A stretch of 56,979 nt of DNA, the filler included, from Dugesia japonica (Eukaryota): NCBI GenBank assembly GCA_001938525.1. It is 5 parts of 5 records of this genome, joined end to end, with 100 filler letters (N's around TTAATTAATTAA, not from the genome) between each part and the next. Parts side by side here need not be neighbours in the genome. Positions count along the whole stretch, not along the records: positions 1 to 11,762 come from MQRL01633596.1; positions 11,863 to 20,397 come from MQRL01591286.1; positions 20,498 to 31,569 come from MQRL01623542.1; positions 31,670 to 41,308 come from MQRL01639698.1; positions 41,409 to 56,979 come from MQRL01595302.1. One strand, given 5' to 3'. Both the position numbers and the translations under genes were made by a program. The notes beneath the pieces are model-generated. The model did not search any database and was not told where the DNA came from. It saw only the letters and a list, made by a program, of their open reading frames with translations. Of the stretch, positions 1,400 to 48,095 are shown one piece after another. Positions within the stretch are counted from its first letter, which is position 1, and each line of letters opens with the position of its first letter.

Positions 1400-1907
1400 G
1401 TGGAGCGATAAATGGTAATATTAACATTGCCGGTAAGCGACTAATGTTGATGTTAATATTACCCAGGGATTATTAATATAAAATCTGTTCTGGGATTAAT
1501 AATAATAAGTCTTCCCGAAGATTAATATTATGCCTGCTCGGATGATAGTTGACATTGACCTAGAAATAGTTACCATGGAAATGACTTTGACTTACTTTTA
1601 TATAAATTTGACTCGACCTTGAAATATTCTACCAATCATAACTGAATATACTACATCAATCTGACCTTAAAAATTCGATTTTGAATTATTTCGTCCAATC
1701 CGAATCGAGTTCAGAATTTCGATCAGAATCAGAATCACTTTGACCTTGAAAATTCAACTTTGAAAATTTACACCAATCAGAATCGAGGTTACTAGATCAT
1801 TGTTCTTAGAAATTCTACCTTGAATTATTTCAGCCAATCGGAATGAAGTATACTAGACAACTGACCTTGACGGGGGATCTGATGCAGTGCGCTACTATCT
1901 ACCTACT
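1400..1907 (-). mobile_element. Putative element end: terminal motif (1887-1907) plus array of GACCTTGAAA / CCAATC(A/C/G)GAAT repeats
   Basis: Reverse complement AGTAGGTAGATAGTAGCGCAC then GATCCCCCG; repeated gaccttga and ccaatc units at about 1555-1870. Confidence 0.5.
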
Positions 1908-1970
1908 GTGTATGATTGCCACAAGGAAAGCAAATGAATTCAGGATTTTTATCTTTGAGTATAGCTTGGA

Positions 1971-2513
1971 CTATTTGATTTCACTCATTATTGATTTCAC
2001 ACATTGAACTAGCGTTGTCAAAGCGTCCAGCTACATAATTAATTCTTGATCCTCAAGAAGTTTCTTTATGTTGATCGTGATATGTTTACAAGCTGTTCCG
2101 TAAAACTCATCAAAGCAAATAAAAAAAGAAATACTTTCACATTTCTTATATCCAAGTATTTCAACAGTAACCATGCATTTATCTGTAATGTTGTAGACAT
2201 CATCATCAGCTTCGTTTGAATTAATTAAAAATCAAGCATCTTTTAATGTCATCAACTCATTGATTCTTTTAAATAAATCATTTAAAATAAACTTTTTATG
2301 TTAACTAATGTTAACATGTTATATGCACTCCTTCTCATCTTTTCTGGTTCCTAAAACAAAGTAATGAAACTAATACTAGCACATTAAATACCTGGAAAGC
2401 ATATGTTATTAGTTTCCTGAAAAATTCATCTCGTATTGAAAGTAATCATGAGGGTTTTCAAAATTGATGTTAACTGCTGAAACATTATCCTTTGTCAAAA
2501 TATTTGCTTGCAT
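1971..2513 (-). pseudogene. Two-exon orphan gene, family A copy 1 (frameshifted, internal stops)
   Basis: TATATAAA at 2547-2554, ATG 2513, GT..AG intron 2351-2391; peptides FRKLITYAFQ|EPEK, LNDLFKRINELMTLKDA, ITDKCMVTVEILG match the copy at 8277-8590. Confidence 0.6.
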
Positions 2514-3332
2514 TTTTAAATAATTAAAATGTAAATAAAGTTTAGGTTTATATATTGTTTTATAAGTATGTGCAATACTATGTATTATTATTTATGCACC
2601 TGATAATTTCTAAACTGTTACAAATAGACCGGAGTGAATGACTGAGGATAGATATATTACGAAAAGTATATATAAAATTGTNNNNNNNNNNNNNNNNNNN
2701 NNNNNNNNNNNNNNNNNNNNNNNNNNNNNNNTATATTTATTTTTTATCCATTAAAATATGAACAACATTTAATCAGAAATATTGACTAAAATAAAGATGT
2801 TCATGCTTAATGTTTTCATTATAAATATTTATGAATGTACATTTTATATGTCAATAGTATAATACCNNNNNNNNNNNNNNNNNNNNNNNNNNNNNNNNNN
2901 NNNNNNNNNNNNNNNNNNNNNNNNNNNNNNNNNNNNNNNNNNNNNNNNNNNNNNNNNNNNNNNNNNNNNNNNNNNNNNNNNNNNNNNNNNNNNNNNNNNN
3001 NNNNNNNNNGAATAATGAAATTCCTTCAAAACTACTTGAAGAAATTTGGAGTGAAATATTACTTGGAATTGTAAAATCGACTTTAAAAGGTATTTTCCTT
3101 ATTTTTCAATATTTTTTAATGTGAATATAGCAAAAAATTATTCTTATATATTATGTAAGATTGTTTTAATTTTGTGAATGTACGTTAATAGGAAGATGTA
3201 TTATAATGGAAGTTTTACCTTCTATAGTTTAATTCAGTTCAAGTTTTCTTCCGCTAATTAGAGACATGTGCTAATATAAAATAGTAATAATGTAATAATA
3301 TAAAATAATTACTAATTTTATATAAACTAAAC

Positions 3333-3969
3333 CAGTGTCTTGCAACTGTTGCGCTGTGGGAAAGTATTAGTGCGCCACGAAAACTTTTGGAGTTTTTGAA
3401 TTTTTGAATGATAAAAAATATAAATATTTATGGCTTAAAAATGTTCGAAGATTTGAAATAATTATCAAAATATTACNNNTAAGTTTTAGATAAGGAAATT
3501 TAATTAATTAAAAACGAAATTTGCGATGTTGTTTTATGAATAAATTTAACTACTGTTTTCTTCACTGTACTCTTAATTCAGCTTTATTGATAATTTTATT
3601 ATAAATGAATACAGAAATTTCCTAACTAATAATAGAAAAATCTCTGATTCAAAAAAGGTGTGATTAATAAAAGGGATCAGCCAAATTAAAACAAAAAAAC
3701 TGCTTGATAATAAAAAGGAAAAAGTGAAAGTATCAAGAAGATTACCTGAAATCTGGATTTTTTGCATCAGAAAACGATCACTCACTACCATTTTGTTTGA
3801 TATGCTTTAAAACTCTAAGCAACAAAACGATGACACATTAATCACACGCATAAGTCTTTGTTAATAAAGTTTCTTTCACTTTTACAAAATTATCAGTATC
3901 TTAATGGGTGCACCGCAAAACCATTTTTGGCTTAGTGCGCCGCGATCTAAAAAATATTGCCAGACACTG
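3333..3969. mobile_element. Non-autonomous hAT-type (Charlie/Buster-like) MITE
   Basis: TIRs CAGTGTCTTGCAA / TTGCCAGACACTG (12/13); 8-bp TSD AACTAAAC / AACTAAAA. Confidence 0.8.
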
Positions 3970-4134
3970 AACTAAAACAATGATCAGTATTTAATCACAG
4001 AAATTATTTTTTATTTGGAAATTGCATGAATTTAAATTGTATGTGTAGTCAATATCGAATGGCATAATTGAAATCTTAAGAATCCAAGTAATTTGAAAAG
4101 TATGTATTTGAATAAAATAGATGATATAAACAAA

Positions 4135-6606
4135 AAATAATTAAAATATTTAATATATTTGAGTGTAATACTCCCTATCACACTCCCTATCAGATGAGGG
4201 TCATTTAATATAAAGGCTGGACGAATTTTGTCTATGGAAATTCACTCTACTTGTCCACGTTGCATTACTTCAATAACTTTGCCATCTTCATTTCTCCAAG
4301 TTACTAGATATGGACCTTCATTGATTGGCTGTAGTGGTCTTCTTAATTCGCGTTTGATCCTTACAAATGTTTCATTTATTTATTCCTTGTGGAATGAATA
4401 TTTTCGTGAGTTTGTGTGATCTGAGACAGGTGTTTCGAAATTCTGTTGGAACCATTAGTTATAACTCTGAATCTTCCCCTGCCACGTTACGGATTCCTAA
4501 CATTGTTAATGGACGTTTTTCTAACCAACTGCGTTCCTTGAGTCTGTACAACATTTTTTTATAGACCTGTGTAATCTATCTATTTTTCTATTGCACTGTA
4601 GGTGGTATGGTATTGTTTGCCTATGTTCAATTCCAAAGTAATTACATAAATCGATAAATTTTTCATATATTAATTGTCTACCATTTTTGCTTACTATTAT
4701 CTCTGGTACTATGAAGCGAGATATTAATTTTTTACTTAAGGGTTTTAGTACGGTGTCTGATGTAATTTTATTCAGAGCCACTACCTCTGCCCATGAAGTA
4801 TCACGATCAATCATTGTTAATATAAACCTTTTGTATTTAAAGATTGGCAAAGGACCGGTGAATAAATATCTAAAGTACTTTGAATTTCACTAGATTCGGA
4901 TTCGATTCTAACAGTGCTTTTGTCTGCCTAGTAATTTTATTAGCTTGACATATCTGACAAAATCTGCACCATTTACGAATTTGGGATTTCATACCTGGTC
5001 AAAGATAACGACTTGTCAGTAATATAATTGTTGCATTTGATCCTTGATGACACATACTTTGTAGTCTTTCAAATTTATTAAAGTTAAAACACTCCAGTAA
5101 AAAATTATTGTGTTAGCCTTCGAAGTGTTAATCAGAACACCTTCCTTAGATATTTTCAGTTTCAGAGAGTGATTTTGTATATAATTTTGAGACATTAGTC
5201 GTCTTTCTAGATTTTGACTAAGTCTGAGAGTGCATATTGTTTAATTTCTTTTAATATTTCATCGTCTGTGTCTTTTCTAGACAGAAAGTCAGCTACTATA
5301 TTGTCAGAATCTTTTATATACTGAATTTACATATCAAACTTACTCAGATATTCTGCCCATCTCCACTGTCTCACAACATTATTTTTCATCTGTATGATAT
5401 GAAGTAATGGCTTATGATCTGTTCGGACAATAAATTTGCTGCCAAGTAAGTAGTGATTGAAATGCTTTATTAAGATAACTAAAGCCAGAAGCTCTCTATC
5501 AAATTTTGAATATATTTGTTCTGCAGTGTTTTGACTTACTTGAGAAAAATGAAATAGGACATAAACGACCGTCATTGTTTTCGTGGTTTAAACTGCCACC
5601 GATTGTCGTACCATCGGTTCGAAAAACAAATGTTTTCAGGTAGTTTGGCGTCGCCATGTCTACAATTTCGGTATGTTTCTTTAAAGAAATTCTAAATGCT
5701 TTTTCATGGCTTGATTACCATTAAATAGCTCGATTTATTTTTGAGCCTATGATGAGATCATGTAATGGAGACATTGTTTCGGATAAGTGAGGAATCATCC
5801 ATTGATAAAAGGCCATTGTTCCAATAAATCTACTTAATACTTTAAATGTTTTTGGAATAGACATATTGCTGATGGCTTCAATCTTGGATTGTATTCGCTT
5901 GATTACAAGAAATTCTACCTCGGATTTGTTGAACTATCATTTTTTTGTATTAATCTGCAGCTTCTTCTTACGTAAAACTTCTTTTATTAGCTCTAGGTAA
6001 TTCTGATGGTCGCCTGAGCTTTTTGAATGAACTAAAATGCCATCAATATATACTCAGTAAATGCGCGACAGTCTTGCAAACATTTGCCCATGTGTTGTTG
6101 GAATGTTTGTGAAGCATTTTTCAGTCCAAATACCAAACTTCCGTATACAAATAATCCAAATAGAATTATAATAGCCGTTTTATGCCGGTCCTCCTCATTG
6201 ATTTGGATTTGATGATACACTTTCTTAAGATCTAAAGTTGAAAATAATGAACAACCTGTACTTCTGTCCAAAATGTCGCTCATTCTGGCTAATGGGTATC
6301 AACCTGGTTTCGTAATTGCATTATGCATGCAATAGTCTCCACGTGAACGAAAAGTTTCATCTTTCTTTTTGACAAATACAAGTGATGAAGCCCATTCGCT
6401 GTTACTTGGTTAAATAATATGCTGAGTGATCATGTCATCGAACTCTTTTTTTATTTGACTGAGAACGATTCTTCCTAATTTGCGAACTCTTTGCTTCATT
6501 AGTGCTCCGAAAGTTTCAATTCTTAGGCAAGTTTGATTTTCTGTGCTCATAATAAAATTAATAAAAATATTTAATATATTTAATTAATTATTTTCTGAGT
6601 GTAATA
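4135..6606 (-). mobile_element. Degenerate Ty3/Gypsy pol remnant (RT-RNaseH-integrase) bounded by short direct repeats
   Basis: FSTLDLKKVYHQI..KTAI..FGLKNASQTFQ (RT); YSKFDRELLAL..RTDHKPL (RNaseH); IDRDTSWAE..PYHLQCNRKIDRLHRSIK (IN); repeat ...aaaatatttaatatattt..gagtgtaatact at about 4143-4172 and 6564-6608. Confidence 0.9.
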
Positions 6607-7439
6607 CTACAATATGAAATAGTGTAATGTTTACTATAATTTTTTATTAACATAAATCACCACTGAGATTTATGAATAATTATAATATTATTAGATAGGA
6701 GCAATGTTAATTAAAAATTTTAGAATTAAAAAAAATATTTTCATACAAATAATATCCGTGAAATAATTTCTTTAAGAAACTTGGAATCCATTAGGATTTT
6801 CAAATCCCAAAGGTTATGTAAGAGATTTTACAAATATCTGTATCAGACTATTTTTCGTGTTTGCAGTGCTATTTAAACAGTGTTGTTCAAGTTCTTGGAT
6901 CATGCGAAGATTTTAAAAGGGACATTTATAACTGTAAATGGATTTCTACTGAGAAAACAGATGATTCAATATTTGTTGAAGGCTAGTTATAATTTTNNNN
7001 NNNNNNNNNNNNNNNNNNNNNNNNNNNNNNNNNNNNNNNNNNNNNNNNNNNNNNNNNNNNNNNNNNNNNNNNNNNNNNNNNNNNNNNNNNNNNNNNNNNN
7101 NNNNNNNNNNNNNNNNNNNNNNNNNNNNNNNNNNNNNAGGTAAAGGTTATCATAATACTTTTTTGATAATTTTTATTAGTCATACAATATCAGTAACAAA
7201 ATTTTGATAAAACACAATTTTTTATATTTTCATTACTATATTTCCCATTAATTGGCAATGCATTTTTAGTGCAATAAAAATAAATTTCACAAACACTTAC
7301 AAACATTATATTATCACTAGATTGATGCGTCAGCACTGGATCATCTCCNCTGCCGACAAAATAATCTAGCAATTTGAGTAATCCAGAAATATAGGATTTT
7401 GATTGTTCGTTAGGTATACGTAAAAATCTTTTTCGAATT

Positions 7440-7830
7440 CGGATTGGAATGGTCAAATTTTTTCACGGGAAGGTCAAAAAATTGAATTTTTGATTCCAAA
7501 TATTTTGGTCAGATTTTATCATACGATTTCAAATTTAGTATTGTTGAACTCAGAATTAAAAACTGACCATTTTTTGTATATACTTTGTGTATATACATAT
7601 TTTTAGTTTCCAAGATAAAAGTATCTCAGCACTAAATCAGTTGACCTTGATCTATGAGTTGTTCGGTCAAAAATTATTGTATGGTCATGAAAATGATAGA
7701 ATTCAATTCAGAATAAAATTTTAAACATTTTGCATATGTTTTGCTGTAGATATATGCTTAGTTCAAAAGATAGAAAATTCCCGTTTACCATGTTCCACCT
7801 TGGATAGAAAATTATTTTTCTGGAAATAGT
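7440..7830 (+). repeat. Dispersed non-coding repeat family (probable non-autonomous DNA transposon), copy 1
   Basis: gtattgttgaactcagaattaaa, atatgcttagttcaaa-gat and ccatgt..ggata shared with 25780-26380 (+) and, inverted, 47150-47460. Confidence 0.65.
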
Positions 7831-8276
7831 CACACTAAAAATAAATGCATTTAACTATTGAAATAATAATTAGTAAAATACTACATGTTATTTCTTTGAC
7901 AAATTGTTTTATCACGTGTCGTTAATTTTTCACGTAAAATATAAGCCAAGTCAACTTCTTTCTCTACTTTGACTGGTACCATGGAAACTGAATAGTTAAT
8001 ATACCTATACTCCACCATATTATCTATAATTTTATCAATATTCATTGTCAATAAGTTAAACTATTTAATTTTCGTTTATATTATTTAAAATCAAAATAAA
8101 TTAATCATACACACATACATAGAAATAAAAAAAATTCATGATATCATAGGGTCAAAGGTCATACAAAAGAAAATTAATCACAGATATTATATAATCTAAA
8201 GCATTGCAAATTTTGTACACACACATAAATAGTTACTATATAAATCAAAACAATTTACAATATTTCATTAATAAAA

Positions 8277-8590
8277 ATGCAAGAACCGAAAAATAGTGCA
8301 ACAACCATTGGTTTCGAATTGAAGAAGACCTACTTCAACAAACCAATCACTTATTCGTTTCAAGTAAGGTTTACTATTATCATTACAATTATTAACTTTT
8401 CATTTAGGAACAAGTAAATGTACTCAAATCGAAGTATAGCTTGCAGTTAACAAACATTAGTAAGGCTGATCAAACGGCTATTAATGATATTCTATCAAAA
8501 TTTGACAATACCATGTCATTAAAAGATAGTGCTTTCATTGATTTAAAGAAAATAATAATCAACAAATGTATAATCATAGTGGATATTTGA
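8277..8590 (+). CDS. Two-exon orphan gene, family A copy 2 (89 aa when spliced; probably prematurely terminated)
   Basis: TATATAAA 8237-8244, ATG 8277, exon 1 8277-8363, 44-nt GTAAGG..TAG intron, exon 2 8408-8590 in frame: MQEPKNSATTIGFELKKTYFNKPITYSFQ|EQVNVLKSKYSLQLTNI...MSLKDSAF...INKCIIIVDI*. Confidence 0.6.
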
Positions 8591-10551: not shown

Positions 10552-10618
<67 letters not shown>

Positions 10619-11762: not shown

Positions 11763-11862
11763 NNNNNNNNNNNNNNNNNNNNNNNNNNNNNNNNNNNNNN
11801 NNNNNNTTAATTAATTAANNNNNNNNNNNNNNNNNNNNNNNNNNNNNNNNNNNNNNNNNNNN
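11763..11862. other. Artificial 100-bp contig linker
   Basis: 44 N + TTAATTAATTAA (six-frame stop) + 44 N. Confidence 0.95.
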
Positions 11863-13838: not shown

Positions 13839-14585
13839 TATTAGGTTGTCTACAAAGTTTCCGTCGATTTTCTGAATAGCCGGCGAAAAAGTTCTGTATA
13901 TAGTTTAAAGGATATTAAATTTGTTTAAATATTTCAATTTTTAAAATCTTATAATCATTCAATTCAAATTGCTTTAAAAGATTTGATATTTGATTAATAA
14001 ATAAAAATNTATTCATCTTTTGGAATGGATATAAATAATGAAGAAATTCGACGATTATTGAAATTTTATTTCATTAAAAGCAAGCGTGCTAAGCAGGTTT
14101 CTAAAATGATTTGTGTAGTTTATGGTGCACATGTTGTATCTCATAGTACAGTCTGCGAATGGTTTGCTCGATTTCTCTCAGGAAATTCTAACGTCAAAGA
14201 CGCAACTCATTCTGGCTGATTAATCTGTCAAAAAGGCGGTAAAATCATTCAGAAAGTGGAGGAAGGAGCCATGAAATCGCTAAGGATCTCAGTATTCATC
14301 ATCAAACCGCTTTGAACCATTTACAGAAATCTAGATTTCAAAAAAACTGTATCTTTGAATTCCAAATAATTTAACACAGAAAAATTTAATAGACTGAATT
14401 TTAATATGCTAATCTTTGCTAAAAAGATATGAAATCGAACTATGTTTGAAACGTCTCATGACAAGTGACTAAAAATGGATCCATTTTGATAACAATGTGC
14501 AAAAAAGATATTTGACAAGACTTCGTGAGACCCCAAAAACGGTGGTAAAGCCAAGATTGACACTAAAGAAGGTAATGTTCTATTT
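13839..14585 (+). mobile_element. Mariner (Mos1-like) transposon remnant, 5' TIR and N-terminal transposase
   Basis: TA-TTAGGTTG.. terminus at about 13839; MDINNEEIRRLLKFYF..ICVVYG..VCEWFARF.SGN..VKDA.HSG HTH; degenerate TSD*KWIHFDN and KP.LT.KKVM motifs. Confidence 0.85.
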
Positions 14586-17059: not shown

Positions 17060-18377
17060 AGAAGTGGTTTATTATTATTATGAAAATATTCATTTGCCAG
17101 CGTCTGCTGAACCTAACAGATATATGCATTATGAAGAATTTACTGGTCCAGATTGTATTATCAGTTTTTTATCAGCGTTAGAGCTTATCGCGTAAACCAA
17201 AGTTTCACTTTGGTATGAGAATGCAAGAGTTCCATTGCCCCCGCAATCATATCAACAATGGAGGAATTTTAAAAATGCATCAGAATGTTACTTATGCCAA
17301 AAATCATCAGAACAATATGTGAGAGATCATTGTCCTGTTACCGGACAATTTCTTGGAGCTGCGTGCAATAAATGTAATTGGTCCAAACAGATCCACAGCA
17401 TGTTGCCAGTCTTTTTTCACAATCTAAAATGATATAGCTTGCATCATACACTTAAACATGCCATCAACAAATTTACCACTTGGAATCTCAATGCTATTCG
17501 TCAGACTTAGAAAAATTCTCAACATTGTCAGCATTTATGAAATCAGATTATCAAAAAACAGTGTCAATTAAATTTTTGGATTCACATCAGTTCCTATCAG
17601 CTTCACTGAAGACATTGGAAAGACTGTTTAAAATCTATTAAATTTTATGAATTTGAGACTGTGTAACAATGAAAAGAAACTTGTTACATATGCAAGTAAG
17701 CCATAATTCAAAGATTCAAACAAAATAGCCGGTAATTTGGTTGCAGTTTTATTAAATAAGGATTTTGTAACATTAGATAAACTATCTTATATTGGACAAG
17801 AGGTTCTGGATCTATCCAAGTTCAGAATGTATAAGTTACAATATGAATTAGAGTCATTTAGAAAAACACTTAATTGTGAAATTAACATCGTCGCTGGAGA
17901 CACAGACAGTTTCTATCTCAAATGTAAGAATATTAATCAGAGACGGCAGCTTCTTTCAGCAATGATTCAAGACAAGATTTTAGACAGTTCTAATTTTCAG
18001 AAAGAAGATCTTCTTTATTCAACGCAGCCATTGGTTAGTTCAAGGATGAAAATAAAGGTCTGGCTAATTTTAAATAATGTATATTTCTTCGTCCAAAGTC
18101 ATAATCACTTCAAACAGATGATAAAACAATGATGAAGAGTAAAGGGATATATCTCAAGCAAACCATTATTAATCAAGACTATATAGACGCATATGACAAG
18201 GACGAAGAAAAACGAGCACCTCAAAGCAGAATTAGAACAGTGAACCATCAATTATTTACCATTCAAACAAGAAAGAAAGCATTGTATCCGTTTGACGACA
18301 AAAGGAATTGGACTTTTCAAAATAGCAGTGTGGCATATGGGATTACTCGTTGTAAATATTTTTTGAAAAATAAATAA
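17060..18377 (+). pseudogene. Polinton/Maverick protein-primed DNA polymerase B with endonuclease VII domain; disrupted and internally deleted
   Basis: CYLC..VRDHCPVTGQFLGAACNKCN (EndoVII), VFFHNL, FLDSHQFLSASL, YIGQEVLDLSK.RMY, AGDTDSF, KSKGI, KKAL.PFDDKR. Confidence 0.9.
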
Positions 18378-18759
18378 ATTATATAAAAAGATTTATTTAA
18401 TTTTATCTTACTATATTTAATAATGTTGTTTTATTGTTAATTATATCTGTATTGTTGTTTAATTATTTTTAAAAATTAATTGGATGTGTATATGTTTCAA
18501 CAGTTTTATACTATGATATTCTTGATCAGAGTAAAATTCTGCGTCGAATGATGTGTAACATGACATAGTTCTAGAAAAGAAATTCTTAAAAAAAACCAAT
18601 ACTGTATGTAATGGTTGTCAGTGGAACGGTTGCTATGGTAACGGTGAAAAGTATTATGCAATAGTAACGTAAGGATTACATAAGTATTAAGCAACATGAT
18701 TTAAATGGTTATGTAATACAACTATAATGATTTAAATAAAATAAATTATATAAGAAAAT

Positions 18760-19400
18760 AGTAGGTGGAAGTGAGTGCACCGGGCCAGGATGTTTACATT
18801 ATCCCAGGTGTGAACTTTCACGTCCTAATGTAAACTATGAAATTGACACCTTAGGTGTGAACTTTCACACCTTAATTAAACAATAGATATTGACACCCGA
18901 GGTGTGAATTTCATTCATTATTTTTTTTATTAAAAATTAAATGCGTTGCGCATTGAGCATCAAAAAATTCAAATTAATTTTTTTTGTTTTAATTAACATG
19001 AAAATTTCCATACATTATTACTTTTGTATTAAAAATTAAAAGTATGATGCATTGAGCTTTATAAAATACATTATTCTNNTTAATATTATTATTAACGTTA
19101 TTTCAAATATGTTTATAGGTGTTAATTGTCACATCTGTAGCATCAATTTTCACATCTAATTGTAAACAATGTTTTTTTATCGACGTGTAAATTTCCACAC
19201 ATTATTATTTTTATTAAAATGTTTTTTTATGGGTGTGAATTTTCCCACTTTTGTCATGAACTTTCACACCTTAATCATTTGTATTCATGTATGAATATTT
19301 AAAAACATATCATTGTTGTTATTTAAGGTGTGAACTTTCATACATTATTATTAACTTTGAATTTTCAAACTTTTGGCATGAACTTTCACACACCAACTTT
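18760..19400 (+). repeat. Terminal-like motif plus array of palindromic GGTGTGAA-CT-TTCACACC units
   Basis: AGTAGGTGGAAGTGAGTGCACC at 18760; full or degenerate palindrome copies at about 18807, 18854, 18901, 19186, 19232, 19257, 19327, 19379. Confidence 0.75.
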
Positions 19401-19598: not shown

Positions 19599-19991
19599 TT
19601 ACGGTATACATAATTTTACATGTTCATTTAAGTTATAATTGACAATTCGAAGACTCGGAAAAANNNNCTTGAGAGTTTTGATTTTCTTTCCATTCACGTG
19701 ATCATTTACATAAAACAATGCATTATTAGAAATTGCTTGCAAGTCATTGAGTATTCGAATTGGATCAAATTTACAATCTCCGTCAATCCACTTGAGATGA
19801 TGACGCCAGAGCCGTAAGTACTCATTAGTTGTTTGAGCAGATTTTGATAAATTACCCATTGATTCCGTCATGGCAAACATGTAATAAAACGGATGAAGAA
19901 TATTATCCACATCCATTATACATAATTCTTTAATTAAATAGTCGGCATTATTATCCTGAAAGACTTCATGATCAATAAAAAACACAGACAT
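19599..19991 (-). CDS. Polinton-associated small DEDD-exonuclease-like ORF
   Basis: N-terminal IDHEVF...YLIKELCI (DxE) pattern, H.LKW.DG; head-to-tail with the adenain ORF. Confidence 0.5.
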   Translation of the reverse strand: MSVFFIDHEVFQDNNADYLIKELCIMDVDNILHPFYYMFAMTESMGNLSKSAQTTNEYLRLWRHHLKWIDGDCKFDPIRILNDLQAISNNALFYVNDHVNGKKIKTLKXXFPSLRIVNYNLNEHVKLCIP

Positions 19992-20017: not shown

Positions 20018-20326
20018 TCATTGTTTATACTGACTTTTGAGCCATTCAATACAATACTGCTCACATAGAAATGCCAATGGATTCTGATACATGATTTGAT
20101 TGTATTCGACACGTTGTTGCATACGCTCTAATTTTGTTACCAGCAATGGTTGATAAAACATACCCATTGGATCAAATACATGAATAATATTTGGTTTGAC
20201 ATGAATAGCAATCCAATGCTCACCATCCAAATTCGAGGTATGTGTATACATAGTATCCGTTTTGTAAAAGGTCCGGTAATCGTTCGAGTGGATACACTCC
20301 TTTAAATCTCCTGCTGTCCAAATCAC
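20018..20326 (-). CDS. Adenain-like (adenoviral-type) cysteine protease of a Polinton/Maverick; 5' degenerate
   Basis: GEHWIA (His), VFDPMG (Asp), YQ....LCEQYC (Gln/Cys). Confidence 0.8.
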   Translation of the reverse strand: MIWTAGDLKECIHSNDYRTFYKTDTMYTHTSNLDGEHWIAIHVKPNIIHVFDPMGMFYQPLLVTKLERMQQRVEYNQIMYQNPLAFLCEQYCIEWLKSQYKQ

Positions 20327-20397
20327 GTTTCAATATAGTTTCAATCTGAAAAGTACTATTAATCAATAAAATTATCTTTATAAAAACAATACATACT

Positions 20398-20497: not shown

Positions 20498-20874
20498 TCT
20501 TTACTTCTTAATATATTTCTTTTGTTAATATTATTTTCTTTTAGATAATTATCGAACTCTGAATCATTATTCAATAGTTCTCTATTTATTTGTCTTCTAA
20601 CATTTAATAAATGTTCTTTTCCTTTTAAATGATTTTTATAACTTCTTTTTTCTTGAAACCCCTTTTCACAAATTTCACATTTAAATAATGAATTTATACA
20701 AAACTTTTCATGTGTTATTAATCCAGATTTACATTTAAAGACTTTGTTACATTTTGTAAATTTAAGTTCTTTTACTTCTTTCTTTTTTATTATTCCACAG
20801 TACTTTTGATGAGTAGTTAATCCATTTTGTTTTTTAACTTTATTACATTTCTCACAAATAATTGCTGAAGACAT
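20498..20874 (-). CDS. Intronless multi zinc-finger (C2H2/C2HC) ORF, truncated by linker
   Basis: CEKCNK..GLTTHQKYC, KCNKVFKCKSGLITHEKFC, CEICEKGFQEKRSYKNHLKGKEH. Confidence 0.7.
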
Positions 20875-21149
20875 TTTATTTAAGAAAAATTTAGTTTAAT
20901 GGGTTTTTTTAATTAATTGAGGCTACAGCTATAAGTTTTTTATTTCTATTTTAAGTTTAAGATTTTTATTTAAATTTCAATCCATAACTAGAGTAATGAT
21001 AGAACGGGGGCTTATGTTTTTAGACTATGGCTTTTAATATTTTTTTATTTTAATACACAACGTCGTAAAAAGGTGGTCTAATTTAGGTGTCAGGTCAAGC
21101 CTCTGTCTGTTGAAGGTGCCCCCGTTCCATCATTACTTATAATATATAC

Positions 21150-25700: not shown

Positions 25701-25779
25701 TATATTTGATTCAAGTCTAAAATCGTGGTGTTATGGATCTTATAAGTAGAAAAATATGAGCCATAGGAACAGTCCCCCT

Positions 25780-26380
25780 TTCCCCCGCCGTCGACTGTTT
25801 TTGACAATTTGACTATTTTAGTGTTATTGACATATAGAATTTTGATTGGAGGTTACGAATACATGATAATATTTTTCTATTTCAGGTTGAAATGTTCGAA
25901 TTTTAGCTCGGAAACATCGAACATCAATAATTTGTTTTTTAATTTTTTCGGTCAAATTTTATTGTATGGTTTTAAATTTGTTCTTTTTCATCGTAGAATT
26001 AAAAAATGAACATTTTCTGTATAGAGTTTGCTAGATTAATNCTCGCTTCTCTGGGAAAAGTTATGAGCGCNCGNGAACAGTTGACCTTAATTTTAAAATT
26101 TCTCAACCAAAACTTATTGGATCGCTTTGTAAATAGTACTATTCGATTTAGAATAAAATTTTGAAAATATTTTGTATAGAATTTGATGTAAGAATATGCT
26201 TAGTTCAAAGGATTAAAAATTCTCAGGCGCCATGTCGCACCGAGGATAAAAATTTATTTTTTCAAGAAATACTTATGATAATAAAACACATTTGGTATTG
26301 TTGAACTCAGAATTAAACATTGAACATATTTCACATGTGGTTTGCTATATAATCTTTTTAGATATTAAGAAAAACCTATG
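25780..26380 (+). repeat. Dispersed non-coding repeat family, copy 2
   Basis: Blocks shared with 7440-7830 and 47150-47460. Confidence 0.65.
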
Positions 26381-27992
26381 AGCTTTTGGATACTTAATGT
26401 ATTTTTAAGTATTTTATAGCTTTTTTTAGAGTTTTCCAAAGTTTTATGAGTTTTATAGGGTTGTATTTGATTCATTGTTTTCATTAGATATGATAAGTTT
26501 AACTGCTTTTTAAGAGTTTCTTAAAGTAAAATGACAAAGGAATAAAAACTTGATTAACTCATACAACAATTCCTTACTTATTAACCTAATATACACATTC
26601 ATCATACATCAAAGTTTCATAATTATACAGCACTTTCTTTAAAGTATAATCAAATTTCATATAAATAGACTGATGTTCATTAAAACATACTAGATTTCAT
26701 TATTTCACAACAGATCGCTTAGGTCAAACAGTAATACACTAGATTCAATACATCATAGACTAATCATAGAAGAAGGAACAGTGGCGAAGATTCCATGGAG
26801 GTGTGAATATACAAAGAACAAGAGGATACAAACAGAAGGATCATGGTTCATTTTCTTAAAAAAATATTTTAAACGAAATGTTTTCTGTTTTTATTATCTG
26901 TTTTGTGTTTTATTGATATATTTAAAGACATTTTATTATAAAATCATAAAATATGGAAGCTATGGAAGTAGATGACACTGTAAATGATTGGTTGGAAAAC
27001 ATCTATGATCAAAAAGGTTTTAATATTATTTAATTTCATTGTTGTCAATTTTTCATTAGAAATAATAAGAAACATTTTAGAGGAGCAATTCATAAATGAT
27101 TTATTTATATACTGGACTACTAAAATTTACTGGGAAACGATATATGAAAGGATAGGATTTGAAATTGATGTCGTAATCAAAAGATATCTTTCATATCCTT
27201 TTTGATATGTTTATTCATGTAATCAGTGTAAAAAATCTATTTTGAAGCATGTTATTGAAAAATACCTTGAAGATATAAATCGTATACTTGAATAAAGCTT
27301 GATAAAATGTCTAGCGTTTCTATTAAAATGGGAAGTTCTACCAAACCCGGCTTATTTTTCCAGACATAGCCCCGTCAGATTTTCACTTATTTCGTTCTAT
27401 GCAGCACAGTCATTTGGGTACACGATTCAGGAATATTGAAGAGGCAAGAAAGGTTAACAGCAACTTCATTCAATCCAAGAGCAAAGACTTCTTTCATAAG
27501 GGTATTCATCTTTTACCTGAAAGATGGGTAAAAGTTGTGAATAACGATGCAAAATATTTTGATTGAATGTACTGTGTTATTTGTAATAATATTGTTGGGG
27601 CGAAACAACCAGTCAAGGAGGAAATAAGATAATCACCACCAACAAGTACCCTAAAGAGAAAAGGGAATAATACGGTATTACCACAAAAGAAAACAAATAC
27701 CAAAACGAAATCAGGTTGTAAATTAATGATGAAAGGAACAATCTAAGAAAAGCTGATAAATGCGTACTCAGATAATCAAATAAAGGAAATTACTGAATTG
27801 TTATTTAAAAGCGGGAAAATGATTAAACAGAATAATTAATTATAAAGAAAAATATAAATTAATTAAAAGCTAAAATAAATTAAAATTAAATCAAAATTCA
27901 TTTTGGGCGAATATCTATGCACCAGAAGATCGGAGGAGCTCAGCACAAGAAAATTTCCGAAGAAATTAGGGTCTACAAATTCCATCATGATC

Positions 27993-28330
27993 AGTAGGGG
28001 GATAGTGGCGCTCTGCTGCAATTTTTTTAAGCAGTTCTCTCGGGACCCCCCCCCCGAGGGTGGGCTTCGAAATACAATACGCTTGAGCTGCGTTTTTTTG
28101 TCCTTTAATTTTTGGCCTTTGAGTTTTGGCTTGTTTTTTTTTCTAAGATTTTTGGGATCAAAATTTTTTATCGATCGGATCAGTTTTTTTTGTTGATTGG
28201 ATCAATTTTCTTTTTTGATCAGAATTTTTTCGACGGATCAAATTTTTTTAATCTTTATTTTTACCTCTTTTTTTTAACCTTTTTTTTTAATCTTTTTCTT
28301 TTACCTTTAATCTTTTATTTTTTACCTTTT
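27993..28330 (+). mobile_element. Putative element end: terminal motif, C-run, GGATCA-Tn repeats
   Basis: AGTAGGGGGATAGTGGCGC, GGGACCCCCCCCCCGAGGG, about 5 (g)gatca-Tn units at 28155-28250. Confidence 0.55.
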
Positions 28331-29249
28331 ATTTTTAATTGTTCCTTTTTGTTTTAATAAATGGACTGTTTTGTTTTAATAATTAAACTTTTTTTTATTT
28401 TAAATAATGAAAATGGTTTGTTTTAATTAATACTAGAATTTTGTTGGTAATTGAAATTTTATTATTTTTTTTGTGAGAAGACTTTATATTTATGTATGAG
28501 ATGGGGTAGTCTTGATAATGGATGAGAAGTATTTTGGATGCGAAGTATTTATATTTTGCATAGAATAGTGGGGAAATCTTTTTAATATAATTAAATTAAA
28601 TTAAATTTAATTAAATTAAATTAATTAAATTAATTTATTTATGTATCAAATGAGACAGTCTTGATATTTTTTTTAAGATATTATTACAAGATATGGACAG
28701 TTTTGATATTTTTTAAGATAATATTACAAGACATTTATGCATGTTATAGTTAGTCTATATATTTATGCATGGTATGGGTAATCTCTATATATATGCTCAA
28801 AGGTATTTAAAGAATAAGACATTAATTTTTTTTATTATGTACATTATTTTTAATTATTATTAACTATTTTCATGCATTGTTTCAGTAACAGTCTTGTTTT
28901 CCTTCCATAGCATTACATTACATCCTCTAACATGAACAGTCTGACGAAGCGAATCCATCAAGGTCTTTAGCATCCAATTCGAGTCCGATCATAATTAAAC
29001 TTATCGATTAGCTAAGCTAAGCTCGATTACAGTATGTGCATCTCCAGTAGCAGTATTTCTATCCGTTCACATTCGGACATAATTGAACACCACTACAATT
29101 GTTTAAAAAACAATCAGTCATCATCGTCANNNNNNNNNNNNNNNNNNNNNNNNNNNNNNNNNNNNNNNNNNNNNNNNNNCAACTGTTACTTATTCAATAC
29201 ATGACATTTTTTATATTATTTAGCACATATTAGACATCTTTGACAAATT

Positions 29250-29426
29250 TTGATCATATTAATGGAACCTTTAAACATAGTTGACCATATTACTATGGAA
29301 CCTTTAAACATAATTGACCATAATAATATGGAACCTTTAAATATCATAGACGATATTACTATGGAACCTTTAAATTTCATAGACCATATTACTATGGAAC
29401 CTTTAAATATCATTGACCATATTAAT
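29250..29426. repeat. 33-bp minisatellite (ATGGAACCTTTAAAyATmrTwGACCATATTACT), at least 5 copies, runs into gap
   Basis: Directly visible 33-bp period. Confidence 0.92.
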
Positions 29427-29989: not shown

Positions 29990-30210
29990 GAAAATTCAAA
30001 ATGGCGGCTATGTTGAGTTTAAAAAATTCTCAGACGTATGATTTTCAGTGTAGGTGTGTTGTATCTAAGTTGCATAGCTATGGCATTTATTAAAAATCAA
30101 AATGGCGGCTATGTTTGGTTTTAAAAATTCAAAATGGCGACTATGTGTAGGTTTAAAAAATCAAAATGGCGGCTATGTTTAGTTTTTAAAAATCAAAATG
30201 GTGGCCAGCT
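29990..30210 (+). promoter_or_regulatory. Cluster of YY1-like TCAAAATGGCGGC repeats
   Basis: Five copies at about 29996, 30097, 30128, 30161, 30193; function inferred only. Confidence 0.55.
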
Positions 30211-30593
30211 TGAGTTTTAAAAATTCTCAGAAGTGTGATTTTCAGTGTATGTGTGTTGCATCTGAGTTGCACCTGAATTGCATACCTATTGCATTTATTA
30301 AAATAAAAATTCCCAGGCACGTGATTTTCAGTGTATTTATGTTGCATTTAATAAAATATCTATCAAAAACAGCAAAGATAGGGGTCTTTGTGCTATTTTC
30401 ACGATAAAATATATCTATCAAAAAAACCTTTGATATTTACATGATAAAAATATATCAAAAAAGTTCAAAGAGAGGAGTCTTTGTGATATTTTCATGATAT
30501 AATATTCAAATNNNNNNNTTTTTTTACAATATGATAAAAACAGATTTTTTTTCATTAAAACCTTAACTAGGTAATTTTCCATAAAACGAGCAG

Positions 30594-31149: not shown

Positions 31150-31560
31150 AATACACCATGTTGATCGAATGCGGACACCCTGTCTTTTATTATCCTTGTT
31201 CATTAGTCGATTTAGATTTATTACTGCGGTGTAATGAAATCTGTTGTTTTTTTCCAGTAATGACAGATATATTTTCTCTCCATCTATCACTTTTGATCGG
31301 CGTATTATATCCAAATTTGGATGTTTTATTACTACGTCATCTTCTTCATCCTCCACTGATTCTTGATTCCATGATAGAACATTTATGGATAGTCCTGGAT
31401 TATTCTTCTCAAACTTCGGTATATCAATTAGTTTCATTGGCATATCCTCATCATCATAAGTAAGCTCCGATATGTATTTTTTATATAATGTTACATGGTT
31501 TCTATGCTTTCCTCTAACCTGATCTGTTTTTAGTGATAGCAAGAATACTGTAAATAAAAC
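31150..31560 (-). pseudogene. Second Polinton pPolB fragment (N-terminal region)
   Basis: MPMKLIDIPKFEKNNPGLSINV...IYLSLLEKNNRFHYTAVINLNRLM matches the P..I.KFE..N..SINV..LLL..HY..I.NL.RL pattern of Polinton/adintovirus pPolB. Confidence 0.75.
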
Positions 31561-31569
31561 AGTAATTAT

Positions 31570-31669: not shown

Positions 31670-32774
31670 CGGGCAATATTGTTTTAATAGAATGCCATTT
31701 GGCATCACAGCAGCACCAGGGACATTTCAAGAGATGATGACAAAATTGGTAGGCGGAATCAATGAAGCCATGGTTTATCTTGATGACATCCTGATATTTA
31801 CGAACAATAAAGATCAACACTATAAAGTAATTGAAAGAGTATTGACAGAAATAATGAAGGCTGGTCTAAGAATTAATCCGTAAAAGTGTCAATTTCTTCA
31901 AAGTGAAATCAAGTTTCTTGGACACATAATTAGCAAGGATAGTATTAGAACTGGTCCGCCTATAAGAATATTTGGCAAACCTAATTGTGTGAAGAAGTAA
32001 CGAAGTTTCTTGGGAATTTGAAATTATTACAGGAAATTTATAGAAAACTACGCAAAAAAATGAAGAATATTAGAGCAGTTGTGTAGCGGACCAAGCAACA
32101 AGAAATTAGAATGGACTAAATGGAATGAAATAAACGATACTTTTAAAAGTATTAAAAAATCTCTAATTACTGCACCAATATTGTGTTTTCCGGACCTAAA
32201 CCAAGAATGTATATTAGATACGGATGCCAGTTTTGATACGATTGGAGCAGTATTGTCACAGAGAGATAAAGAAGGANNNNNNNNNNNNNNNNNNNNNNNN
32301 NNNNNNNNNNNNNNNNNNNNNNNNNNNNNNNNNNNNNNNNNNNNNNNNNNNNNNNNNNNNNNNNNNNNNNNNTATTTCTGTATAAATTTCAAACATTACT
32401 TGTATGGTAGAAGATTTACTCTTAGAACAGATCACAAAGCTCTAACCTTCTTGATGACGACAAAGAAACGAATTACGTCGCAATTCCAGACATGGATTAA
32501 TTATCTGAGCAGTTTAGACATGATTTTGGAATATAGAAAAGGAACTCAACATGCTAATGCAGATACGTTATCTATACCAAGATGTGAGGTATGTGTACAA
32601 TGTCAAATGTCACATAAAGATGCCAAGAAAGGGAAGGTTAAAACGAGAAAACTGAATATAATTGAAAAGGAAAAAGAAGATCATTTAAACATTTCTGAGG
32701 AAAGAGATTTGATCAAGAAAATGAAAATTCCGGATGACAAATGTTATTATCTTATGCAATTAAAATCTTCATAA
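31670..32774 (+). mobile_element. Ty3/Gypsy RT-RNaseH remnant related to the 21905-25161 element
   Basis: MPFGITAAPGTFQ..YLDDILI; LDTDASFDTIGAVLSQ; FTLRTDHKAL; HANADTLS..CEVCVQCQ. Confidence 0.9.
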
Positions 32775-37279: not shown

Positions 37280-37420
37280 AGTAGTAGGTAGATAGTGGCG
37301 CATTGCCCGCACTGATTTTTCATTGAAGACCCCCCCCGGGCAAAAAATAATTTTTAAAATATGTTATAAAAAATTTCATATACAATTTAAAATAGGCTTA
37401 AAAAATTTTTTTTATAAATT
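37280..37420 (+). mobile_element. Putative element end: terminal motif plus C-run
   Basis: AGTAGTAGGTAGATAGTGGCGCA..GACCCCCCCCGGG. Confidence 0.55.
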
Positions 37421-41308: not shown

Positions 41309-41408
41309 NNNNNNNNNNNNNNNNNNNNNNNNNNNNNNNNNNNNNNNNNNNNTTAATTAATTAANNNNNNNNNNNNNNNNNNNNNNNNNNNNNNNNNNNN
41401 NNNNNNNN
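41309..41408. other. Artificial 100-bp contig linker
   Basis: 44 N + TTAATTAATTAA + 44 N. Confidence 0.95.
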
Positions 41409-41659: not shown

Positions 41660-42083
41660 TATTTCCGTGAGAGGAGGAGGGGGTATGTCTTTGTTCTGAC
41701 ATAGAAAAATTTTCGAGAAAAAAATATGACTCATCACAAAAATTCAAAATGGCTGGAGGGTGGGGGTAAGGGAAGGGGTAGGAAGGGAGATAGAGGTATC
41801 TAAATTTCATAGAAAATTTTTTGAAAAAAATATGAGTCATCAAAAAAAAAGCGGGCAAAAAAAGTGGGCGGGGCAAAAGAAAAGTGGGCAGTGAAAAAGA
41901 TAAAAAGTGGGCGGAGAAAAAGATAAAAAGGGGCGTGGCCAAAAAAAGTGGGCGGAGAAAAGATAAAAAGTCGGCGGAGTCTAAAAAGAAGCGGAGTCCA
42001 AAAAAGGTGCGGGCAAAAAAATCGGGGGGGTGGGGTACCCCCCTTCGAGGGGCCCCAGTTTGGTGCGCTCATATCTACCTACT
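41660..42083 (-). mobile_element. Putative element end: terminal motif, G/C-runs, AAAAAGTGGGCGG array, TGA(C/G)TCA and CAAAATGG motifs
   Basis: Reverse complement AGTAGGTAGATATGAGCGCACC at 42062-42083; GGGCGG-like units 41850-42015; ATGACTCAT about 41726, ATGAGTCAT about 41832. Confidence 0.6.
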
Positions 42084-42135
42084 TACTGTTAATCACAGTG
42101 GATTTCAGGATGGAACCACTCAGGCCCATCAAATC

Positions 42136-44239: not shown

Positions 44240-44376
44240 TTGAGTAAATTTTATTCTATTGAGTAAATTATCCTTAATAATTTATATTCTATCGAGTAAA
44301 TTATATTCTATTGAGTAAATTATATTCTATTGAGTAAATTCTATACTATTGGGAAAATTATATTCTAATGAGTAAG
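44240..44376. repeat. About 20-bp tandem repeat (TTGAGTAAATTATATTCTA) in the leader of a Gypsy gag
   Basis: 6-7 visible copies. Confidence 0.85.
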
Positions 44377-44451
44377 TTAGAAATTGATATGACATTGAAG
44401 TTTAGTTTATATATTAAAGTGTAAATAATAAATATATTTTCAAAATTCAAG

Positions 44452-46990
44452 ATGTCTGTAATTACTGATTTAACTGGTGAACACTGCCATCTCAACTCAA
44501 TGACAAGAAATCAAACAGCAGAACTGTTATTTCCAAGAATAACAAAATTCTCAGGAAATTGTTATGAAGATCCAATCGCGTGGTTGAAAGAAATTGAAAC
44601 GTTCTCAGTCACAAATAACTTTGACCTCATGTTAACTTTTGATTTCTTATTAGATAGCGACGTTAGAATTTATGGCTAGCTTGCAAAGCTCGAGCCAAAA
44701 TGAACGACAAATCAACATGAAATTTGTTCAAATTAAAATTCGTCAAAGATAAATCTTTTTTACGAATGATTGAAGATTTCAGTATAATGATTCAAAAAAC
44801 TGATGAAAGATATAAAAAATTTGAATTACGAGTTACAAAAGCTTTAAAGGAAATATTCAAATACGGATTATCAATGGAAAAAATTGTAAAGAAAGTAATT
44901 CAGAAAAGAGTAAAATCTCAAGATTTAAAAAAAGCCTTTGCCCTGAAATTAGATTTAAATGCTGATGATATACAACAGTTAGCTGAAAATTATGACAAAA
45001 ATGATGAAATTGATGAAAAGTCATCAGTCAATAAATTATCATATTCTGAAGTGGCAGCAGCTGATTAATTCTCAATGTTGAAGAGAATAGATACAGGAAA
45101 AATTAACGGTCGGAATTACATGCGAATTCCGGATAAGCCAGCTCCTGTTGTTAATGATACAGAAAGAAATTCTCCAATTCAATACCAAAAGCAAATCCAG
45201 AGAAACTCTCCAACGACATTCATGAAGTTCATTGTCAGAAAGATGTATAATCAATCCACAGGTTTTCCACATCCAAAAGAGGAGATTTTGAGACCCGATT
45301 CAATGAAATATTTCCGTAATAATTGTCTTCTAAAAGATTGTTGTTTAATTTGCGGAAAATTGGGACATCATTTTAGAAGTTGTAGACTGCTTGGGAAATA
45401 TCACCACAGAAACAATGTTAGATGTATTGTGGATGAAACTAATTAAAAAGATGCAATTAATATAATTTGCGTTGAATCAGATGAAGAAGAGCATGGTGTG
45501 AACTATTTAAACGAGAAGGACTTCAATGTTCCAATTTTAGCTGTGGAGTCAAGACAGTAAGAACAAATTAAAATCAAAATTTAAACATAAAGATGAGATG
45601 TATGTGAAGAGTGATGGAAGTATTTGGAGTGTAGTTAAAGTGAATGATAGAGGTGTGGAGATGTTTTGGGACACAGGAGCATGGATTTCAATAATGCATA
45701 TGAATGCTTGGAAAAGATGTAATTTGTTTCAGAAAATTCAGAGATAAAATTGAGTGAAGCATTTTTGAAGGAAGTTGTTAAATGCTTAGGCGTCGGAAAA
45801 GTGAAAATTAATTACTATAATATGAATGAAACTGTCAATTTGGTGATAGTACAGAGAATAAGCCCAGAGTTCATTGGTGGAATAGACATGTGCAAAGTTT
45901 TTAATATTCAATTAAAGATGATTGGATTAATCAAATCAGATAATTTAGTGTGTGATGTTTCTGATGATAATCGATTAAGAGTCACTATGAACATTTTAAA
46001 ACCAAGAGATGACACCTTGAAAAAATTGTTAACGTTTTTCGCCTCGATATTCATGGCGCATACGTTTGATCTGGGTAAAACACATATAGTTAAACATCCT
46101 ATCCAAACAACGGGAAATCTTGTCTTACAATGGCCGAGACGACAACCGATGCACCTAGAAAGCAAGATTGATGAAATGATTAAAACAATTATAAAAAACG
46201 GCATTATAAAAGAATGCAGTATCCCGTGGAATTCACTTATGGTGATTGTTAACAAAAATAATGGAGCTATTCGTATGTGTCAGAATTTTAGATTATTGAA
46301 TGCAGCAACTGATAAGTTTTTGTTTCCTATGCCAGATTCTCAAATTTTATTCGATCATCTTAGTAAGTGTACCATATTCTCAACACTAGATATAGGCCCA
46401 GCGTATTATCAAGTCGAACTAGAAAAGAAGGATAAATTAAAACCGCTTTTTTTACAAAGAAAGGTCAGTACTGAATAATTGCATTCCATTCGGCCTATCA
46501 ATCGCTCCAGCTACGTTTCACAAATTAATGCATACAATTTTGCCAGATATTTTATTTAAAGGCGTTGTAGTTTATATCGATGATATTATAATCTTTGAAA
46601 AAATTTGGATGGAACATGATCGCATTCTATTAGAAGTATTTCAAAGAATTAAAACATCTGGTCTTAAAGTGAATCCAGCCAAATGTAAACTTTATCAAGA
46701 GGAGCTCGTGGTTTTGTGTCATACAATAAAAATTTGGATTAAAACCTTATTCAGAGCAAATCAAGGAGATTGTTAATGCTGGAATTCCAAATTGTACTAA
46801 ACAAGTGCGATCTTTTTCTTGGAATGGGAAATTATTACAGGAAAGAATTTTTAGCAACTTGCTACATCTCTATATGCTGCTAAATGAGGTCAAAAGCACG
46901 AGATATGTGAACAAAAAAATGCGAGACGAGTTTCTGGAAAATCAAGGAAGATCTTTGTAATTCTCGAGTATTGGGGTATCCTAATTTTTT
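44452..46990 (+). mobile_element. Ty3/Gypsy gag-PR-RT remnant, 3' truncated
   Basis: KFSGN..EDPIAWLKEIE (gag), CLICGKLGHHFRSC (CCHC), WDTGA (PR, about 45667), IFSTLDI..AYYQV, PFGL..APATF, VYIDDII. Confidence 0.9.
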
Positions 46991-47149
46991 TTATCCTAAT
47001 AATTTTTCAGTGGTAGTTTATAGAGCCATTATAAATTGCTTTCAATTCTGAGTTAAACTTTATAAAATTATTTTAAAAATTAATATAATCATTATTATAA
47101 TTAATTATATAATTATATATTATTTCTTGAAAGAAGCATTTTTGTATTG

Positions 47150-47460
47150 TAAATCCTACATGAAATATGTTCAGTTTTTTATTCTGACCTCAAAAATATT
47201 AAATTTGTTTGCTTATCACAAGTATTTCCGCAGTAAATCGTTTCTTTTATCAAAGGTGGATCATGTTACCTGGCAATTTTTTATCTTTTAAACCAAGCAT
47301 ATTTTTACAACAAATTTTTTACAAAATATGGTTGTAATTTTATTCTAAATCAAATGCTATCATTTTTAGAGCGAAACAATAAGGTTTGGCCGAGAAATTT
47401 AAACAAGTCAAAGTGTTCCCATGCACTATTACCTTTATCTTGGAAACTAAAAATATTTAT
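47150..47460 (-). repeat. Dispersed non-coding repeat family, copy 3 (inverted)
   Basis: tttatcttggaaactaaaaatat is the reverse complement of about 7597-7619; other shared blocks. Confidence 0.6.
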
Positions 47461-48059
47461 GTTAGCTCTTTTTAAAACTTTGCAAATATTTTAAAATTTA
47501 ATGCAGTTATTAGTTTAAATTTTTTAATGTAAATAATTAGTAAAAAATTTTAATAATTAAAATTTATTGCTTTATTTTTTAAATTACTTGAAATTAGAAG
47601 TTTTAGATTTAAAAAATATATTTTTAATAAATATAATAAATTTGTTTAAATTTATTATTTATTCAAAAATAAAAATTGGAAAAGGCAAGTTTTGAAAGAA
47701 GCGTTCAAAAGAAAGAAGAATTTCAAAGAAGAATTAATTGTAGTTGAAATAAAGTATTGAATTAAAAGTCTTGTTTTAGTGGATTTAAATGAAGAAGAAA
47801 ATAAATAAAACAAAAATTTATATAGTAATTTCTAAACAGAAAATGTTTATTTTTTAATTCTATGACAATCAATATCAAATTCAAAACCATACGATAAAAG
47901 TTAACTAAAAAATTTAAAAAACAAATTTTCGATATTCAACCTTCCCGAGCCAAAATTCGACCGTTACAACCTGAATTCGACAACCTTTTCATGTATTTGT
48001 AACGTCCAATCAAAATGCTACATGTCAAAAGCAGCAAAATATCAAAACCAAAAACAGAG

Positions 48060-48095
48060 ATGGGGGCTTTTCCGGTGCGCTACTATCCATCTTCT
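48060..48095 (-). mobile_element. Degenerate copy of terminal motif
   Basis: Reverse complement AGAAGATGGATAGTAGCGCACCGGAAAAGCCCCCA. Confidence 0.45.

Follow-up and report, generated by a model that had tools for sequence, protein, structure and literature searches.

The window analysed here comprises 56,979 nucleotides of AT-rich DNA from Dugesia japonica (assembly GCA_001938525.1; five joined records), in which eight copies of a short motif, some of them degenerate, stand at the boundaries of otherwise dissimilar sequences. We consider it likely that these copies are the outer tips of terminal inverted repeats (TIRs) belonging to about six families of Polinton/Maverick elements (Alpha-adintovirus-like) or of gene-less derivatives of such elements, now present as orphan ends. 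Six of the copies are listed below and are named hereafter, like the other two, by their outermost base; mismatches are counted against the 21-bp pattern given in an earlier note on this DNA, unless another copy is named.

1887-1907, minus strand: element end, starts AGTAGG, 0 mismatches
18760-18780, plus strand: element end, starts AGTAGG, loosest of the six copies (4 mismatches when set against 42083, 6-8 against each of the remaining four)
27993-28013, plus strand: element end, starts AGTAGG, 3 mismatches
37283-37303, plus strand: element end, starts AGTAGG with AGT directly before it, 1 mismatch
42063-42083, minus strand: element end, starts AGTAGG, 2 mismatches, 675 bp from a scaffold gap
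48075-48095, minus strand: element end of family B (see below), starts AGAAGA, 3 mismatches

The claim of a conserved 21-bp motif in six copies is confirmed: five copies carry 0-3 mismatches to the pattern, compared with a mean of 0.00 in 100 shuffles, and the 18760 copy is looser; the positions given earlier are off by up to 3 bases. Given that the pattern was drawn from the copies themselves, two less circular tests were added. In a leave-one-out test, each of the six copies, used singly as the query, recovers 1-4 further places with at most 4 mismatches (0.00 in 50 local shuffles). In a post-hoc control, 10 of the 12,706 GC-richer 21-mers of the window had at least three dispersed matches, compared with 0 in two shuffles, and these 10 form four clusters, three of them made up of this motif and the fourth of a word from inside the 48095 family. 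Furthermore, self-comparison with the 48095 copy revealed two degenerate plus-strand copies absent from the earlier note, at 7316 and 25745, whose tips are 7-13 mismatches away from the other copies, too divergent for either to be found by the tip alone. Among the eight ends, AGTAGG begins five, AGAAGA one and AGTAGA one (25745); the 7316 copy reads ACTAGA. A C/G run of at least 5 bases, previously remarked near five copies, indeed starts 9-33 bases past the motif in five of the six, with 15 such runs in the whole window.

These copies are ends of elements, because similarity begins at the first A and is at background level outside it. The majority-base count is 5.19 of 6 at positions +1 to +21, as opposed to 3.17 outside and 2.92 further in, with the jump at +1. 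Homology extending over both sides of the motif was not seen: none of the 28 pairs shows relatedness between its outer 200-bp flanks (identities of 0.37-0.55, against a background of 0.50 with a 99th percentile of 0.57). On the inner side, relatedness is confined to 3 of the 28 pairs, all within family B, so that the eight ends represent about six unrelated inner sequences. The earlier observation that subterminal regions differ between copies is borne out by the 25 unrelated pairs, and the same pairs, showing no relatedness beyond the tip, are at odds with the idea of a single family; nor do the copies organise the window, as had been suggested, since they read as independent relics amid nested repeat debris. 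A hint from shared words that the inner region of the 1907 end might be a relative of family B was rejected as not significant (z scores of -0.9 to 1.2), and the trio 27993/37283/42083 reaches only z scores of 2.1-2.2, over the first 120 bp. The dinucleotide AT occupies positions -6/-5 in 5 of 8 end flanks (binomial 0.0013 before correction for about 40 positions), which could possibly reflect a weak target preference.

The one group of ends with common inner sequence, family B, consists of the 7316, 25745 and 48095 ends, which share 600-700 bp at 68-79% identity, inward only, and form one old family.

7316-7889, plus strand: family B copy 1, in which a degenerate end is followed by about 570 bp of inner sequence (68% identical to the 25745 copy, 68-71% to the 48095 copy)
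25745-26444, plus strand: degenerate end and about 700 bp with internal repeats of about 155 bp, family B copy 2 (from self-comparison)
47055-48074, minus strand: inner part of the third family B copy, interrupted by about 380 bp of inserted AT-rich sequence (79% and 69% identical to the 25745 copy)

A motif-like word recurs about 310 bp inside every family B copy. The region inward of the 7316 end has no Pfam match and one homologue only, P0010, of no known family; two relics of one gene family matching P0010 lie at 2145-2570 (minus strand) and 8447-8554 (plus strand), with no Pfam match and no convincing Atlas match. A 70-bp satellite of 7 copies (48160-48655) lies just outside the 48095 end.

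Ends of Polintons that begin with hexamers of this kind are already known. Mavericks have been described with 6-bp end motifs, 6-bp duplications of the target site (TSDs), TIRs 46-1,447 bp long and a part played by the repeats in jumping back (Barreat and Katzourakis, PMC8097293); the non-coding terminal lengths in the window, 500-750 bp, fall inside this range. In the supplementary table of that study, which covers vertebrate Mavericks, AGTAGG occurs 37 times, with 35 of the 36 displayed places in the 5'-motif column (tuatara, axolotl, gharial), AGAAGA in 6 places and AGTAGA in 28. By our own count, 21 of the 35 AGTAGG rows have a perfect 6-bp TSD, and one of these rows describes an element of 2 kb that carries no genes. 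Seven of the eight ends in the window begin with a hexamer listed there as a Maverick 5' motif, at a boundary set independently by the conservation profile, and the proposal of a Polinton-type terminus starting with AG or AGT is upheld, AGTAGG, AGAAGA and AGTAGA all being documented motifs. Vertebrate Mavericks with 5'-AGTAGG//CCTACT-3' ends share with the sequences described here the identical terminal hexamer and the combination of protein-primed DNA polymerase B (pPolB) and protease genes; they are likewise mostly fossil, many without discernible TIRs (PMC8097293). In contrast to them, no TSD, paired TIR or complete gene set was found in the window, and, whereas their 6-bp motifs show conservation that fades inward, a 21-bp core is common to unrelated families here (the logo figure of that study lies outside this comparison).

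The genes near the ends provide a second line of evidence.

17094-18374, plus strand: broken pPolB relic with an endonuclease VII-like domain, outside the 18760 end
19602-19991, minus strand: Maelstrom/DEDD-like open reading frame (ORF) facing the 18760 end, containing Ns at 19664-67 and continued by a broken tail as far as about 19520
20021-20366, minus strand: adenain-type cysteine protease gene, frameshifted near 20246
31153-31564, minus strand: N-terminal pPolB fragment (43% identical over 117 residues to P0003, E 1e-19)

The earlier note had two copies leading inward to Polinton genes, which is solid for 18760 and weak for 27993. The 18760 end, the array behind it, the Maelstrom/DEDD-like ORF and the protease gene lie on one stretch without a scaffold gap, and both genes face the end. 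The protease ORF is 92% identical over 75 residues to P0004, and six of six homologues match PF00770 (adenovirus endoprotease) at E 3e-4 to 8e-3, just under the Pfam cut-off. The look-alikes of the neighbouring ORF are arthropod-rich clusters without a name (0.93-0.95), followed by a Maelstrom cluster (0.88), which is a lead only. On the other side of this end, the plus-strand pPolB relic, 45-66% identical to PF03175 proteins over 17094-18341, has a deletion near 17620, frameshifts and 7 in-frame stops in the aligned stretches, and it probably belongs to another element. RFX-like words (a factor name we assume) occupy 18600-18759, between the pPolB stop and the 18760 end; this segment is possibly the cut inner TIR of the pPolB-bearing element. 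The second pPolB fragment is found 3.2 kb from the 27993 end on its inner side, beyond four N runs and unrelated repeats; a direct homologue search with the ORF at 31.0-31.6 kb returned 0 of 492 candidates, the identity coming from the P0003 comparison alone. A C2H2 zinc-finger ORF (20500-20895, minus strand), upstream of the protease across a scaffold gap, is possibly an accessory gene of the same Polinton. Sequence searches of PDB yielded only chains named 'Protease' at E 0.78, below chance CYP51 matches, and AlphaFold models of the protease and Maelstrom-like ORFs were uninformative (predicted local distance difference test scores of 45 and 44). Rfam and tRNA scans of the window gave 0 matches. 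The GTDB genomes yielded no pPolB relative, with patterns that are poorly conserved, and 0 matches to the degenerate motif, and hence no sign of prokaryotic origin.

The gene content can be compared with that of related viruses and elements. The first Alpha map of Fig. S2 in Starrett et al. (PMC8502044) bears, as label text, Penton, Hexon, Adenain, MAEL and then ITR (inverted terminal repeat). The window resembles the Alpha adintoviruses in its PF03175-type PolB, its adenain and the position matching the MAEL label between adenain and ITR, and differs from them in that hexon, penton, FtsK and integrase were not found in it; the readable part of that supplement holds no terminal sequences of Alpha adintoviruses. 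The C. elegans Polinton_CE_TIR (bioRxiv 10.1101/2024.01.15.575659) is similar in its length of about 740 bp, in its complete and partial copies and in its occurrence beside pPolB without integrase, but represents one species-specific TIR family, as opposed to the roughly six unrelated inner sequences found here. Mavericks are reported as expanded in Dugesia (bioRxiv 10.64898/2025.12.11.693146).

Behind four of the ends lie regions rich in repeated words.

1560-1886, minus strand: subterminal region of the 1907 end, with a C-run, 4 CCAAT-type words, 3 TCAAGGTC words, 1 RFX-like word and an inward-facing TATA-like word
18806-19392, plus strand: subterminal array behind the 18760 end, a 47-bp tandem and scattered GGTGTGAA words (the window has 10, of which 7 are here)
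28046-28427, plus strand: C10 run and T-rich/GATC short arrays behind the 27993 end
41720-42062, minus strand: subterminal region of the 42083 end, with G/C runs, every one of the window's 4 GC-box words and 2 of its 5 TGASTCA words

Four differing arrays had been proposed earlier, and Tandem Repeats Finder recovers inward arrays behind three ends, 18760, 27993 and 42083; behind the 1907 end there are only interspersed repeated words (3 of the 5 TCAAGGTC and 4 of the 20 CCAAT words of the window), and the 70-bp array near the 48095 end lies outside it. In a GC-filtered 9-mer test only the 18760 and 42083 ends (2 of 8) exceed the 95th percentile, a filter that removes the T-rich arrays of 27993. 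We take the GGTGTGAA words to be T-box-like, the GC boxes to be Sp/KLF sites, TGASTCA to be an AP-1 site and the words behind 1907 to be of NR5A, CCAAT and RFX type. Such words are markedly specific to single ends; however, the word list was chosen post hoc, once the sequence had been read, and a tandem array of any kind will accumulate the words it is built from. Further inward of the 27993 end, by 2 kb, a 32-bp array (29991-30351) carries 4 of the 5 copies in the window of AAAATGGCG, presumably a YY1-like word, and additional arrays of 33 bp and 31 bp are located at 29250 and 30594, respectively.

Several observations weigh against the assignment of these ends to Polintons. None of the 10 opposed pairs shows a TSD of 5-8 bp (lengths of 4-8 bp, ends shifted by up to 4 bases), two 4-bp AT-rich matches appearing only with shifted ends. 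The sole opposed pair with common inner sequence, 25745/48095, is 22.4 kb apart and 69-79% alike, its tips differ at 10 of 21 bases, and a third copy exists at 7316. Of the 12 occurrences of AGTAGG in the window, 7 are not part of the motif, so that the hexamer is not diagnostic by itself. The best pPolB relic (17094-18374) lies outside the 18760 end, the homologues of the protease fall just short of the Pfam cut-off, and the Maelstrom match amounts to no more than a lead. Neither the 257 ORFs nor the 30 read-through frames gave a match to a major or minor capsid protein, a packaging ATPase or a Polinton integrase, the rve matches in the window adjoining gypsy reverse transcriptase (RT)/RNase H. 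Vertebrate Mavericks have convergent modules in which the protease ends at the centre and not near the TIR (PMC8097293), unlike the protease near the 18760 end. Finally, a firm tie to Polinton genes exists for one of the eight ends only, and, eight ends being spread over 57 kb, a point chosen at random has a 22% chance of lying inward of one of them by 1.6 kb or less; enrichment near Polinton genes therefore cannot be shown within this window.

Given that the window preserves nothing but fragments, the lack of integrase, ATPase and capsid genes lowers the case for a complete element here, not the case that these are its ends. As for the TSDs, no pair has been shown to be the two ends of one element, and their absence is accordingly expected. 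The pair 25745/48095 was rejected as the TIRs of one element, being 21-31% diverged with many indels and having a third copy; the enclosed pPolB fragment, with 0 stops over 117 codons, looks younger than these ends, and the two copies appear to be independent insertions. Polintons have paired TIRs of about 50-1,500 bp at 13-25 kb from each other; no true pair of this kind and no complete element was found in the window, and the ends other than 25745/48095 are orphans, plausibly because of truncation in an AT-rich, gap-ridden window full of gypsy and other relics. The window contains 28 gaps of at least 25 N, among many N runs; four gaps of 100 bp, at 11763, 20398, 31570 and 41309, have the form N44-linker-N44. 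The draft assembly is fragmented, which makes adjacency across gaps unsafe. The earlier note had named a lack of TSDs or inverted pairing as a reason to abandon its reading; this lack is indeed seen inside the window, and its force is weakened by truncation and the 28 assembly gaps.

Other relics surround the ends. Four gypsy-type RT/RNase H/integrase relics (4500-6300, 22700-24500, 31670-32770 and 45500-46800) and a Mos1-type helix-turn-helix fragment (14000-14200) were identified. A decayed retroelement at 51000-53900 (minus strand) has a CCHC gag-like knuckle and a long ORF followed by a Monjiviricetes-type fusion glycoprotein fragment (E 1e-7), an order of gag and fusion protein that recalls planarian Burro elements (PMC6431247). 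A host P4-ATPase (flippase) ORF spans 55049-56530 (plus strand; 493 codons without a stop).

Among the alternatives, the one that fares best, although we regard it as improbable, is that the copies are ends of cut-and-paste DNA transposons or miniature inverted-repeat transposable elements (e.g., hAT-like), with arrays that are transposase-binding subterminal repeats and Polinton genes that are chance neighbours. Short non-autonomous elements typically reach the density seen here, with eight ends in 57 kb, seven of the ends are without a firm Polinton-gene link, and the 37283 copy lies about 100 bp before what we take to be a hAT-like transposase tail (no Pfam match). However, hAT-like frames occur on both sides of this copy, which suggests insertion into a relic, no copy has an opposed partner end nearby, there is no 8-bp TSD, and we know of no cut-and-paste superfamily starting AGTAG. 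The terminal hexamers, in turn, match Maverick motifs (PMC8097293).

Less probable still, and in our estimate very unlikely, is that the motif is an internal cis-element of Polintons, such that 17.1-20.4 kb would form a single element whose pPolB and protease modules converge, with the motif midway. The plus-strand pPolB ends at 18374, the protease and DEDD-like genes converge on it, and the 18760 copy lies between, an arrangement in keeping with the convergent modules and central protease of vertebrate Mavericks (PMC8097293); a motif-like word also lies about 310 bp inside the family B copies. Against this, the outer flanks are all unrelated and the family B inner sides related, the boundary coincides with documented terminal hexamers, and Adenain and MAEL labels stand beside the ITR on the Alpha adintovirus map (PMC8502044). 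Ends of Helentron/HINE-type rolling-circle elements, which lack TSDs and have central repeats, would fit the absence of TSDs, the repeats of about 155 bp in family B and the GC-rich patches near the ends, but are scarcely credible, as HINEs are flanked by T runs and have subterminal inverted repeats and a 3' palindrome (PMC4067079), whereas TT directly precedes 0 of 8 ends (set at AGTAGG or equivalents) and a search close by for inverted partners of the first 14 bases, with up to 2 mismatches allowed, turned up nothing but two matches to the AT-rich 25745 tip.

We therefore retain the Polinton interpretation, in which the end, its hexamers and the one end leading to the protease and Maelstrom/DEDD-like genes survive from the earlier note, and the single family and the organising role do not. 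Polinton families would have inserted independently and later been cut by insertions, deletions and assembly gaps, leaving single orphan ends. From the known biology of these elements, two roles can be predicted for the tip: its terminal AG-x-AG repeat would act as the template when pPolB initiates by protein priming and jumps back, and the retroviral-like integrase would join this same end to host DNA, with a TSD of 6 bp as the result. More speculatively, bases from about 9 to 21 could form a binding core for the terminal-protein/polymerase complex or the integrase, which would account for their conservation between families, and the 500-750 bp behind the tip might hold arrays of host-factor sites, specific to each family and working as promoter or enhancer in the manner of adenovirus ITRs.

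Adenovirus ITRs combine a core origin with NFI/NFIII, Sp1 and ATF sites (PMC5717082), and the likeness, a conserved tip followed by host-factor sites that vary by lineage, is an analogy of architecture, not of sequence; adenoviruses, unlike Polintons, are without integrase. By this analogy, Polinton families with otherwise unrelated TIRs may keep a common 21-bp core origin (hexamer plus GATA..GCGCAC box) for the terminal-protein/polymerase complex and swap host-factor arrays behind it, an idea that we put forward tentatively and judge possible, though on balance doubtful. The literature on Polinton termini covered here, in its accessible portions (including PMC10748475, PMC3014272 and PMC8363768; Kapitonov and Jurka (2006), Repbase and Dfam fall outside this scope), offers no description of a 21-bp core common to families or of factor arrays in Polinton TIRs.

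As it stands, the locus is ordinary: fossil Polinton ends in repeat-rich DNA. If the modular design holds, the arrays (T-box; Sp/KLF with AP-1; NR5A with CCAAT and RFX) would switch on each family in a different cell type or state, the common core would permit cross-mobilisation between families, and Polintons would share the modular layout of adenovirus ITRs. The 21-bp tip could serve as a probe for Polinton ends across otherwise dissimilar families, including gene-less debris missed by protein searches. Furthermore, confirmation of core and arrays genome-wide would provide a defined candidate origin of Polinton protein-primed replication and would explain, in testable form, how animal cells come to activate such elements.

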